A DNA stretch of 64,000 nt from an uncultured Akkermansia sp. (GTDB lineage: Bacteria > Verrucomicrobiota > Kiritimatiellia > RFP12 > JAAYNR01), in the NCBI GenBank assembly GCA_964506575.1, contig CAZDLY010000008.1, positions 20-64,019 of the forward strand, given 5' to 3'. Made by a program: the position numbers and the translations under genes. Positions 43,235 through 45,387 of this stretch are shown in pieces. Under the pieces are notes generated by a model that was given only the letters and a program-made list of their open reading frames with translations, was not told the DNA's origin and made no database searches. Within the stretch, counting starts at the first letter, position 1. Every line of letters starts with the position of its first letter.

Positions 43235-44521
43235 TCAGAAACTTTTGTTCGATGCCCCGCCGGCGGATGGCTCTCCCTCAGCCGCATCATAAGAGCGCAA
43301 AATATCGGTGCGGTTGTATTGTCGGAACAATATGCGGCTTTCCGCCGGATAGTATGGCAGGACATCTGAATAACCGGGAACCACAACTTCAATCACCGGA
43401 AAATCAATCTCCGGATCCGTAAAATCAATCACATAGCAATCCTTGCCCAGCTTCTCAAAGAGCTCTTTGGCCTTCGCGATGTCCTGAAGGCAATCTTCGA
43501 ACTTCTCGCCTTGCCGGAATGGCACCATCGGCCCCTCTTTCAAAAAGGCAGCCGTCCTCTGCGGAACAAATCCGAACATGAACGCAGACAGATAATTATC
43601 GCCGTCATCCGCAATACACTTGAGCGCGCGCAGATCATGCTTCAGGACCCGTTCCTGATCCGCCTGGGAGCCATCAATGAACTCGTCCGCCATTCGCCCC
43701 TGCGCATACTCGGTGAAGATCCGGAGCAACGCATCCTCCAGATTGAACCCGGTGCCTACTTTGAAGAAGTGATGGAACTGATAGTCCTCGGGGATGTTGG
43801 GGTCCCAAAAATAAGCGCCGACACACGGCAGCTCGCCGCCGAAGGTCAGATCCTTGATATAAATGTCGATCCCTTTGCTTCTCACAAATGCCATCTGCTC
43901 CCGGATGACCGGATGCGTGATCGTCTCCCTGTCAATCGTCGGCATCACCAGCTTCTGTTTCAGGACGGTAATATGAACCCGCCGTTCGAAGACCTCGTCA
44001 ATCGCATGAACAACCGCCTCTTCACGGCGGTTGCCTGCCGCCATACCGCTGGGCCCACTTATCCGCCGGACACATTCAATGGGGATCTTTGCCGTTTTCC
44101 CCGTGATCAGTGAAAATCCGTCCACCCAGAACATCGCGATGTCGGTCTGCTTGATCTTCTCAATAGTTTCCTTCGATACCGCGACATGCGGGAGCATCTG
44201 CTCGATGCCCACCGCATCGGGAATCGTCGACTGATGCCCCACCATATACCCCGGCAATTCGGTGTGCTCCTTCGATGCCACCCACTCCGCACACTCGGCA
44301 AGCGCCCCCGCTTTCGCCTGCAGGGGTGTGATCCCCTTGCCCATGGAACGGAACTCCAAGTCGTCAATGTACAAGGCAGACCAGAAGAGCCGGTCCGAGA
44401 CCCGGGTCTCAAAAAGGCGGTATTCGTAACGGGCGCCGATCACAGCTTCAAGTCGCTCGACGGTCTCTTCCAGCGGCACGCAGCGTCCAAACTCCAGTTT
44501 TTTGCATGATTCCAGTTTCAT
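43235..44521 (-). CDS. YcaO-domain protein (standalone, ~428 aa)
   Basis: SMGKGITPLQAKAGALAECAEWVAS and GPSGMAAGNRREEAVVHAIDEVFERR match the conserved YcaO ATP-binding/active-site blocks. No E1-like, Ocin-ThiF or TfuA partner is recognisable nearby. Confidence 0.8.
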   Translation of the reverse strand: MKLESCKKLEFGRCVPLEETVERLEAVIGARYEYRLFETRVSDRLFWSALYIDDLEFRSMGKGITPLQAKAGALAECAEWVASKEHTELPGYMVGHQSTIPDAVGIEQMLPHVAVSKETIEKIKQTDIAMFWVDGFSLITGKTAKIPIECVRRISGPSGMAAGNRREEAVVHAIDEVFERRVHITVLKQKLVMPTIDRETITHPVIREQMAFVRSKGIDIYIKDLTFGGELPCVGAYFWDPNIPEDYQFHHFFKVGTGFNLEDALLRIFTEYAQGRMADEFIDGSQADQERVLKHDLRALKCIADDGDNYLSAFMFGFVPQRTAAFLKEGPMVPFRQGEKFEDCLQDIAKAKELFEKLGKDCYVIDFTDPEIDFPVIEVVVPGYSDVLPYYPAESRILFRQYNRTDILRSYDAAEGEPSAGGASNKSF

Positions 44522-44589
44522 ATCACGCGATTAGAGCTTCATCCTCTGACATCCCACGCAAACGATCTCCTTCATTCAACACGCCGTCG

Positions 44590-45387
44590 TCACCGAGGTT
44601 TGGCCATGACACTCCAATGATTCCCGTCTGACAACACGATAATGTAAGTGCCCACATAAATAAGATTAACGTTGTTCACCCAGTCGCCCTCCTCACGGAT
44701 CAAGGAACGGCCCTCTCCCGTCTTGAACTCAACCCCATTCTTGGAGCCCGGAACCATGCGGACCGGTTTAAGATCCATGCGTTCGGCATACCTCAGGTTC
44801 AAGGCGTCCTTCAGATCTGAACGTAGCCCCAATACTGCCGATTCCAGATCATAGCGTTGGGTTTCCATCCCCTTAATCAAACTTCCCCTCCGATAGACCC
44901 ACGGTTTGCCCCAGCGATCCGTCAAGGGGAGCGGGGCTTTGTCTCCGAGCGCTTTGACCGCCTCCAATGAAGCGGGGAACTCCATATCGCGCCTGTAGCT
45001 CTCCGTCAGCGCATGCGTCACGTGCTCCCGGTCCATCCGGCTGAGCCAGCTCCGAGCCATCTCATCGCCCGCCTTCCGGAGCCCCGTCGCGGGGCCCTTG
45101 ACCAGCAGGGTAGTGAAGATCGCAGCTGCGGTGCCCGTGTCGCCCCGCTTCAGGCGATTCCATGCCTCAAGTCCAGAGACCACAACTGTGAACGCATCTT
45201 GCGGCGCACGGGCTCTGAATGTTGTGCAAGCCTCCGCAACCTCCGAGGCTTCGAAGGCGCTATTCGTGCCGACGCACCAGACATCCCACAGGCCTTTTTC
45301 ATCAGCTCTGACGGATTGCGCACGGCCTGCCATGGCAACGGCCAGAAAAAGCACCACGCAAACTTCAACTTTTAACATCGATTTCAT
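44590..45387 (-). CDS. exported hypothetical protein
   Basis: Has a signal peptide (MKSMLKVEVCVVLFLAVAMAGRAQS). 265 aa with no recognisable family. It is the first gene of the minus-strand block. Confidence 0.5.
   Translation of the reverse strand: MKSMLKVEVCVVLFLAVAMAGRAQSVRADEKGLWDVWCVGTNSAFEASEVAEACTTFRARAPQDAFTVVVSGLEAWNRLKRGDTGTAAAIFTTLLVKGPATGLRKAGDEMARSWLSRMDREHVTHALTESYRRDMEFPASLEAVKALGDKAPLPLTDRWGKPWVYRRGSLIKGMETQRYDLESAVLGLRSDLKDALNLRYAERMDLKPVRMVPGSKNGVEFKTGEGRSLIREEGDWVNNVNLIYVGTYIIVLSDGNHWSVMAKPR

Follow-up and report, generated by a model that had tools for sequence, protein, structure and literature searches.

The window analysed here, i.e. the whole 64,000-nucleotide stretch of contig CAZDLY010000008.1 from an assembly of an uncultured Akkermansia sp. 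(GCA_964506575.1), carries on its minus strand a gene for a stand-alone YcaO protein, which a genome search identified as the single YcaO of the 2.93-Mb assembly. Next to it lies a short gene for an exported protein with a run of four cysteines, and further downstream are the genes of two redox proteins. We propose, with a rough probability of 0.55 and on comparative grounds, that this YcaO would supply the ATP-dependent step in a maturation module of three enzymes, which is dedicated to the four-Cys patch of the small protein. The features on which this proposal draws are the following.

43235-44521, minus strand: stand-alone YcaO, 428 residues, matching PF02624 and TIGR00702
42638-42952, minus strand: small exported protein and candidate YcaO substrate, 104 residues from the ATG at 42952
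43070-43099, minus strand: promoter-like site TTGACC-18-TATAAT (11 of 12 positions) before the small gene, a consensus match only
25416-26375, minus strand: SagB-type nitroreductase with an N-terminal signal peptide, 319 residues, TIGR03605 125.1 bits versus a cut-off of 78.4
22879-25419, minus strand: reductase with old yellow enzyme (OYE, binding flavin mononucleotide, FMN), Fer4_20 and Pyr_redox_2 (GltD-like) domains, 846 residues, by Pfam

The YcaO protein and its clade

Both YcaO motif blocks cited by an earlier note on this DNA were found in the 428-residue translation, and the protein passed PF02624 (residues 60-384, E = 1.1e-48, 166.7 bits against a cut-off of 25.7) as well as TIGR00702 (91 versus 75.65 bits), so that the existence of the gene was confirmed. 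Both Pfam and an AlphaFold2 model (pLDDT 85) gave YcaO as the sole domain, with a YcaO fold, and Foldseek matched the model to YcaO structures with E-values down to 8e-21. The TM-scores against E. coli YcaO, LynD and the Methanocaldococcus jannaschii YcaO MJ1094 were about equal (0.62-0.67) and the fold therefore leaves the YcaO class unassigned. Residues E76, E79, N164, E176, E179 and R180 were invariant in an alignment of 28 YcaO relatives; they were read against what we take to be the conserved acidic, Asn and Arg residues that bind ATP and Mg in E. coli YcaO. The stretch ‘SGMAAGN..EVFERR’ aligned with ‘NGMSAGN..EVFERY’ of the nucleotide site of E. coli YcaO (4q84), the Ser of ‘GMSAGN’ being Ala in the protein of the window. 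None of 73 orthologs had an N-terminal hydrophobic stretch and the protein is predicted to be cytoplasmic; we infer it to be the ATP-dependent, amide-activating enzyme of the module.

Close homologs of 410-430 residues, consisting of YcaO only and 55-90% identical, were found in Kiritimatiellia, Lentisphaerae and Verrucomicrobia. An exhaustive phmmer search of 1.84 billion cluster representatives returned two clusters of ∼55% identity and one of 43%, followed by a drop to 37% or less, where the proteins were of ∼600 residues and themselves passed no equivalog model; the search shows a small and discrete sequence clade. Among 401 species genomes drawn evenly from the phylum, eight carried a member (E ≤ 1e-143). 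These carriers were spread over six genera and five families, and two genomes from the window's own genus (G251 and G392) did not have the clade. This distribution, eight of 401 genomes and missing from same-genus relatives, indicates that the YcaO is accessory and not housekeeping.

The protein of the window fell under the cut-off of every NCBIfam equivalog and subfamily model, including TIGR03266 for the YcaO of McrA-glycine thioamidation (72.7 versus 365 bits) and NF040716 for the E. coli-type YcaO_for_S12, which matched only partially (85.7 versus 700 bits). A housekeeping role of the E. coli type, as an accessory to the RimO-dependent methylthiolation of S12, could be read from the annotation of some relatives as ‘S12 methylthiotransferase accessory factor’ and from the search of solved sequences, in which E. 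coli YcaO (4q84, 51.8 bits) came first and a methanogen YcaO (47.4 bits) next. However, the NF040716 score, a length of 428 as compared with ∼586 residues, the carriage by eight of 401 genomes and the constant location in an envelope operon speak against such a role, and it is effectively refuted by the distribution. The outcome under which the earlier note would have given up its idea, namely a protein of a housekeeping clade whose neighbourhood is unique to this genome, was not what we observed: the protein lies outside that clade and its linkage is kept in 76 loci.

These 76 YcaO loci were taken from species genomes, all belonging to bacteria of the Planctomycetes-Verrucomicrobia-Chlamydiae (PVC) group, and were scored with the proteins of the window. 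Linkage of YcaO to a MoxR/VWA operon and to a SagB-type gene was kept across them in Kiritimatiellia, Lentisphaerae and Verrucomicrobiae, which establishes as real the association that the earlier note had seen in one genome, including a SagB-type gene ∼17 kb downstream on the same strand (25416-26375), which passes TIGR03605. That note had not known the association to be described, and a search of the available literature likewise returned nothing linking YcaO with DUF4159, MoxR or Kiritimatiellia. The common order in the three classes was the SagB-type gene, a gene for an OYE-Fer4_20-Pyr_redox_2 protein of 805-875 residues, and YcaO, the trio being located within the MoxR/DUF58/BatA/DUF4159 operon. 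The OYE fusion gene lay immediately upstream of YcaO in 59 of the 76 loci and the SagB-type gene upstream of the OYE-YcaO pair in 46, and genes of the Bat operon stood beside YcaO in most of the loci having enough flanking sequence. The order of the window (the gene of a 265-residue protein, YcaO, the small gene, DUF4159 and, further on, MoxR, SagB-type and OYE) was shared with close Kiritimatiellia relatives only and is a rearranged version of the same set; depending on the relative, YcaO stood at the head or at the tail of the operon, at identities down to ∼46-50%.

A split stalk protein with a cysteine patch

The small gene had been called mechanically as the open reading frame 42638-43051. 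Its start is likely the ATG at 42952, which is preceded at a distance of 7 nt by the Shine-Dalgarno-like sequence GGAAGGGAG (a consensus match only). The protein begins with a hydrophobic signal or anchor segment containing ‘..ATLCMGT..’, continues with ‘GDGSDEPGFVPPP..PPAPPR.ISSAET’ and the patch ‘DPCCCCPVT’, and ends in ‘ARTEAKKPPQPP..KLK’ (in the family, ‘ARTEAKKPPQPP.LITKLK’); the peptide bearing the patch is SSAETTDPCCCCPVTAQAR. It belongs to a family of 99 unnamed homologs of ∼85-105 residues that matched no Pfam family and are conserved over their full length with 55-85% identity. The patch was CCCC in 72 and CCCCC in four of the 101 sequences read, the remainder showing CCSCC, SCCCC, CFCC, CCGC or SCGCC, or, in a few forms, one or two Cys or none. 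Most of the variants (CCSCC, CCCCC, SCCCC) keep cyclisable residues, which is not the case in CFCC and CCGC.

Some of the small homologs run directly into the N-terminus of a DUF4159 protein, and the lower-scoring matches to the family profile that were read proved to be the first ∼100 residues of DUF4159 proteins of 500-600 residues. In these fused forms, which come from YcaO-less genomes, the patch is ‘IPYPPPP’, ‘IPYPGPP’ or ‘IPFPPPP’ and is followed by ‘..KKNPPxPP..’ and then by ‘DWxARPNDLNNLLK’, which matches the N-terminus of the 436-residue DUF4159 protein of the window. The small protein is therefore a detached N-terminal stalk of DUF4159, and by this comparison ‘CCCC’ has replaced an ancestral ‘PYPPPP’ proline patch in the split stalk.

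The motif ‘ATLCxGT’ of the split proteins (42880-42952, minus strand, in the window) had T19, C21 and G23 in at least 90% of the sequences. It was also retained in a Cys-free small protein from the metagenomic locus L150, and the signal peptides of the fused DUF4159 forms were not conserved. We considered the motif as a recognition element for YcaO and rejected it, since the Cys-free and enzyme-less L150 keeps it; ‘ATLC’ as a lipobox was likewise rejected, as Leu at −1 is non-canonical while the same organisms do have textbook lipoboxes in their SagB-type orthologs. Homologs of the stalk were further noticed on two phage-like contigs. In one of these, L009, PHROGs identified a portal protein and the large subunit of a terminase; at 10001-10459 it encodes a Cys-free protein of 152 residues whose sequence goes on into a DUF4159-type N-terminus, of which it covers the first ∼60 residues. 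The other, L007, has dozens of small open reading frames and two PHROG matches and encodes at 7287-7535 an 82-residue form with ‘FIPGGCTTPM’. They may be viral mimics of the host envelope component.

Within the 401 genomes the split CCCC protein (145-169 bits) was found in exactly the eight genomes that carry YcaO and in none of the other 393, the YcaO-less same-genus genomes G251 and G392 included. Forty-three other genomes matched the profile with at most 117 bits; none has YcaO, and all of their sequences that were read were fused and Cys-free. Fisher's exact test for YcaO and the split protein gave p = 6e-17, a value that overstates independence because the genomes are related. The two genes lay on separate contigs in four of the eight carriers and were 16 kb apart in a fifth (G243), so that the co-occurrence is not only one of adjacency. 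Beyond this sample, the split protein was present in 46 of 50 further YcaO-positive genomes spanning three classes, and at 30 loci fetched from these carriers all 29 readable sequences had CCCC or CCCCC followed by Pro. The co-conservation of YcaO with the small gene and with the DUF4159 and BatA genes, which the earlier note had put forward as a check, was thus observed, for the small gene in the genomes (8/8 and 46/50) and for the operon genes in the 76 loci.

Two further arrangements bear on this association. The metagenomic operon of L150 and L008 has the gene order of the window and a split small protein that is Cys-free (‘FIGSSGVTPM’); no YcaO lies between the gene of the 265-residue type and the small gene, and the operon has neither SagB nor OYE. 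It is a natural control, in which the patch is Cys-free and the three enzymes are missing together. In a second architecture, a small gene with the ‘SCGCC’ variant lies immediately upstream of a YcaO of 409 residues and of a gene for a B12-binding/radical-SAM protein, which are followed by DUF4159. Such a gene, of ∼600 residues, was seen within 10 kb of YcaO in seven of the 76 loci (L044, L046, L049, L059, L061, L064 and L101) and also on the contigs carrying P0203, which has the ‘SCGCC’ variant; the window has none, and the gene may encode an optional tailoring enzyme.

We regard the Cys patch as the probable substrate of YcaO, a reading that the comparative evidence supports well. One alternative is that the three enzymes act elsewhere, on another protein of the Bat operon or on a small molecule, and that CCCC stays unmodified, serves as a metal, disulfide or Fe-S site and is just inherited along with the same operon variant. 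Metal binding is common among Cys-rich patches in the periplasm, and MoxR/VWA systems have frequently been linked to the assembly of metal centres, which fits this alternative, as does the occurrence of SagB-type and OYE homologs in some genomes that lack YcaO; moreover, the operon moves as a unit on an island, so that linkage alone could give the co-occurrence. However, the association outlasts rearrangement between operon head and tail, a distance of 16 kb, separation on different contigs and divergence of YcaO to ∼46-50% identity; in the second architecture it is the small gene that adjoins YcaO, and in the Cys-free variant the three enzymes have disappeared as a set. We therefore consider a target other than the patch to be quite unlikely.

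A cluster in which YcaO and a SagB-type gene stand with a small, Cys-rich gene that has a promoter-like site of its own also recalls a classical secreted antimicrobial of the thiazole/oxazole-modified microcin (TOMM) or linear azole-containing peptide (LAP) type, i.e. a poly-azole core cut from a small precursor and released as a toxin. This is highly improbable, as the small protein is conserved over its full length (55-85%) and not in a core alone, carries a Sec signal and shares its ancestry with the N-terminal part of a structural protein of the envelope. In addition, no protease, ABC exporter or immunity gene was found among the annotated neighbours, and the cluster is always situated within the Bat/MoxR operon.

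Redox partners and a proposed maturation route

The SagB-type protein aligned with the cyanobactin oxidase CyaGox (5lq4, 54 bits). At the position of ‘WKY’ in CyaGox, three SagB-type orthologs had ‘WHY’ and a fourth had ‘WSY’, the Tyr being invariant. A hydrophobic N-terminus was found in 30 of 38 orthologs, many of them with a lipobox (LSGC, FSAC or AAGC), and the enzyme is predicted to be an exported lipoprotein. Homologs of 45-49% identity were also seen in the YcaO-less genomes G023, G296, G146, G004, G253, G085, G262, G122 and G064, the first of which has two tandem copies (G023:C1:2339477-2341446).

There is a 4-nt overlap between the stop of the SagB-type gene and the gene of the OYE/GltD reductase, and an ortholog of the reductase was present in all eight YcaO-positive genomes of the 401-genome sample. 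As only two of 44 orthologs had an N-terminal hydrophobic stretch, the reductase is predicted to be a cytoplasmic, NAD(P)H-linked partner. P0274, a protein of 837 residues on four contigs in NCBI/ENA, unites two parts: a GltD-like half, with 41% identity to residues 456-840 of the OYE/GltD protein of the window, and a YcaO half of this clade (55% identity). In G372 (YcaO at G372:C25:31928-33178) the reading frame containing YcaO is likewise long, with 827 residues. The Rosetta-stone fusion of P0274 physically ties the reductase to YcaO. In the P0274 and G372 lineages the OYE half is apparently a separate reading frame.

The earlier note had described the YcaO as partner-less. As far as E1-like and TfuA partners are concerned this holds, since neither TIGR03603 (SagC/ocin-type E1-like) nor PF07812 (TfuA) was found in the genome of the window or in the seven other carrier genomes. 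It does not hold otherwise, for the protein has a conserved candidate substrate and two redox partners, which are adjacent in most relatives and one of which is fused to YcaO in some. As judged from these comparisons, YcaO, the OYE/GltD reductase, the exported SagB-type protein and the split CCCC stalk make up a conserved four-part module that is grafted onto a Bat/MoxR envelope operon.

Given a cytoplasmic YcaO and a small protein with a signal or anchor segment, the ATP-dependent chemistry should precede export; given exported SagB-type orthologs, that protein should meet its substrate only in the periplasm. We propose that in the cytoplasm YcaO would phosphorylate backbone amides at the patch, whereupon neighbouring Cys thiols would close thiazoline rings, and that the NAD(P)H-linked OYE/Fe-S/GltD reductase would work with YcaO in that compartment. 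The modified small protein would then be exported by Sec, and in the periplasm the SagB-type flavoprotein would act on it, e.g. by oxidizing azolines to azoles. The predicted export of the SagB-type protein, as opposed to the predicted cytoplasmic location of YcaO and the reductase, fits a substrate that crosses the membrane. For the chemistry itself, the likeliest reading is the formation of azolines or azoles, with thiazoline-type rings in first place, and we put it a little below even odds.

The same substrate might instead undergo another YcaO chemistry: a thioamidation, in which a GltD/SudA-like Fe-S flavoprotein would supply reduced sulfur in place of TfuA, or the formation of an amidine, a cleavage or a reductive step. 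The closest solved sequences are those of E. coli YcaO and of the TfuA-independent methanogen protein MJ1094, and TIGR03266 gave more bits than the TOMM model (72.7 versus 50.7). The YcaO has neither a PxPxP tail nor an E1 partner, P0274 joins an NAD(P)H/Fe-S reductase to a YcaO of the clade, and classical azole synthesis has no place for a reductase. On the other hand, the enzymes track a run of Cys, the classical internal nucleophile, which a thioamide does not need, and a SagB-type protein that passes the curated model belongs to the module; furthermore, the TIGR03266 score is far under the cut-off of 365 and TfuA was not found. We thus hold such a chemistry for unlikely. Unlikely too, in our estimate, is a new chemistry of YcaO and the reductase together, e.g. 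one in which NAD(P)H would serve to reduce the thiazolines made by YcaO, or else the phosphorylated amide, with the periplasmic SagB-type lipoprotein acting afterwards and a run of thiazolines, thiazolidines or thiazoles replacing the polyproline stalk as a metal-binding or redox patch of the Bat/MoxR-VWA machine.

Returning to the three-enzyme maturation of the Cys patch, several observations weigh against it. The YcaO scored only 50.7 bits with the TOMM SagD model TIGR03604 (cut-off 219.25), TIGR03603 gave no E1-like partner in the eight carrier genomes, the protein, made up of the YcaO domain only, has no RRE (the domain that recognizes ribosomally made peptide precursors), and the C-terminus, which ends in ‘...RSYDAAEGEPSAGGASNKSF’, has no PxPxP motif, a mark of TOMM cyclodehydratases of the SagD family. 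This C-terminus is variable and modelled poorly: in the AlphaFold2 model residues 386-403 and 409-428 had a pLDDT below 50, i.e. most of the tail from 386 to 428, and the conserved C-terminal stretch is ‘PGYSDvLPyxP’, like that of E. coli YcaO. By sequence the protein is slightly closer to the E. coli YcaO and the methanogen thioamidation YcaOs than to the cyanobactin heterocyclases. In the SagB-type protein of the window, the Lys of the Lys-Tyr pair, which we take to be important near the flavin of SagB-type azoline dehydrogenases, is replaced by His, and in one ortholog by Ser; a Sec-exported FMN enzyme is in itself unusual, and no simple shared task suggests itself for an oxidase and a reductase of one module. 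SagB-type homologs (46-49% identity) and OYE homologs occur in some YcaO-less genomes, no split small gene was found in four of the 50 further carrier metagenome-assembled genomes, and the co-occurrence could come from a single origin of the operon followed by its linked inheritance or transfer. Finally, the support for the proposed maturation is comparative and drawn from sequences throughout. The fold, the tail without PxPxP and the replaced Lys argue against labelling the module a canonical TOMM synthetase, and not against its working like one.

The module resembles the azole synthetases of TOMM/LAP systems (McbBCD, BalhCD/BcerB, PatD/LynD with CyaGox/ThcOx) in that a YcaO is combined with an FMN protein of the SagB type and with a ribosomally made substrate bearing consecutive Cys, in some cases with Ser. 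Both a Cys-rich candidate substrate gene and SagB, as expected of a TOMM cluster, were found in it (CCCC gene in 8/8 and 46/50 genomes, SagB in 46/76 loci); a SagB-type dehydrogenase held in a cytoplasmic complex was not, an export signal being predicted from its sequence. The module further differs in that its YcaO has no E1/RRE part and no PxPxP and stays under the SagD-family cut-off, in that its SagB-type protein is a predicted exported lipoprotein with the Lys of the pair replaced, and in that it adds an OYE/Fe-S/GltD reductase, which in relatives is sometimes fused to YcaO. As candidate substrate it has no leader-core toxin precursor but a module of a structural protein, which is conserved and exported by Sec.

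With the stand-alone YcaOs of known structure (4q84, MJ1094 in 6pe3 and the Methanopyrus kandleri protein in 6ci7) the protein shares the minimal form without a fused E1 or RRE, and with the McrA-thioamidation YcaOs, if our proposal is right, action on a protein and not on a short peptide; BotC/BotCD of bottromycin are further stand-alone YcaOs. It differs from them by an identity of just 17-20%, a patchy and not core distribution, other partners and the lack of TfuA, a partner that is optional in some methanogens.

The nearest match to the proposed logic is found in the bufferins, which are likened here by working principle and not by membership: these have precursors of 80-120 residues with a Sec signal, whose Cys residues become heterocycles while still in the cytoplasm, ahead of transport to the periplasm (PMC11626156). 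The enzymes of bufferins are of the MNIO (DUF692) and DUF2063 families and those of the window are YcaO, SagB-type and OYE/GltD proteins; among the island genes scanned none matched MNIO or DUF2063, no genome-wide search having been made. Moreover, bufferins are metallophores from the class of ribosomally synthesized and modified peptides, whereas the candidate substrate of the window is one piece of a subunit from an envelope complex.

The host operon and its meaning

The host operon of the module and the island that contains it comprise the following further features.

44590-45387, minus strand: exported protein with a signal peptide, a helical bundle and a small beta domain, 265 residues, by sequence and AlphaFold2
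41281-42591, minus strand: exported DUF4159 protein without the N-terminal stalk, 436 residues, PF13709 221.5 bits
26387-41276, minus strand: body of the Bat/MoxR operon, with DUF58, BatA, VWA_2, GATase1_like, AAA_3 and FHA by Pfam
22610-22882, minus strand: LarA-type remnant at the operon end, 90 residues, Lar_N 50.4 bits over profile positions 1-67 of 204
22461-45458, no strand assigned: lower-GC island with the whole operon, 23 kb, GC content ∼0.54-0.60 versus ∼0.65

The body of the operon encodes a protein of 234 residues, DUF58, BatA/VWA (732 residues), a GATase1-like protein (733 residues), proteins of 215, 1199, 778 and 247 residues, and FHA-MoxR (468 residues). The Pfam scores of AAA_3 (211 bits), DUF58 (156), BatA (57) and DUF4159 (221) all pass their cut-offs, and these genes are also found around YcaO in the 76 related loci. 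In L150 the FHA-MoxR gene is directly followed by a full-length LarA gene (21450-22199) and in L006 one stands beside MoxR (11526-12773); together with the remnant in the window, this suggests that LarA is an ancestral neighbour of this operon type.

The 265-residue protein had been recorded in the earlier note as a signal-peptide protein of no recognizable family, and indeed it has a hydrophobic N-terminus, matched neither Pfam nor NCBIfam, has 50 homologs that are all unnamed and, with an AlphaFold2 model of pLDDT 81, gave no PDB match at E < 0.4. Its pairing with YcaO, in contrast, did not withstand comparison: the family is present in 25 of the 401 genomes, namely the eight YcaO carriers and 17 genomes without YcaO, in which its gene mostly lies right after that of DUF4159. 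This indicates a general component of the operon. The protein is 37% identical to its counterpart in the YcaO-less operon L008, and on this comparative basis we place it as a periplasmic part of the Kiritimatiellia-type Bat/MoxR operon, whose position beside YcaO is local.

Homology to the same-genus genome G251 (91-93% at the nucleotide level) ends at ∼22460 and resumes at ∼45459; in G251 the flanks of the island lie on different contigs with unrelated continuations, so that only the end points of homology are defined. Within the island a comparison was feasible for 33147-45391, which is 80-85% identical in nucleotides to G197, a genome of another family. Between G197 and the window the YcaO proteins are 90% identical, as against 62% for PckG and 77% for malic enzyme, and the whole 23-kb operon variant was probably acquired horizontally. 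Two observations were made outside the island. A DUF4143-type AAA ATPase gene (47728-48978) occupies a 1.35-kb gap (47633-48984) in the otherwise collinear alignment with G251 and G392 and hence is a small separate insertion; and the same assembly has a second copy of the malic enzyme gene (G000:C30:30354-31586, versus 45545-46849 in the window; 98% protein identity), which could reflect a recent duplication or strain heterogeneity in the metagenome-assembled genome.

In its MoxR AAA_3, DUF58, BatA/VWA and DUF4159 genes the host operon is like the Bat-type operons of Bacteroidota and PVC bacteria. Most operons of this type in the phylum differ, however, in lacking the YcaO module and in having a fused DUF4159 protein with ‘PYPPPP’, and the combination of YcaO, SagB-type and OYE genes with a split CCCC stalk is a minority variant. 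The fused ‘PYPPPP’ forms, the split Cys-free forms without enzymes and the split CCCC forms with enzymes provide a natural comparison set with which the hypothesis can be tested directly.

The settings in which YcaO enzymes have been described are the pathways of toxins and natural products, McrA and, with an unclear role, E. coli. The clade described here appears from its sequence context to act on an envelope machine, one of whose conserved subunits it would modify without a known substrate-recognition partner. Should this be borne out, YcaO biology would gain a protein-modifying, Sec-coupled branch and a rare case of a maturation pathway split over two compartments, and there would be a first chemical handle on the Bat/MoxR-DUF58-VWA-DUF4159 operons, the function of which has been open since the work on aerotolerance in Bacteroides.

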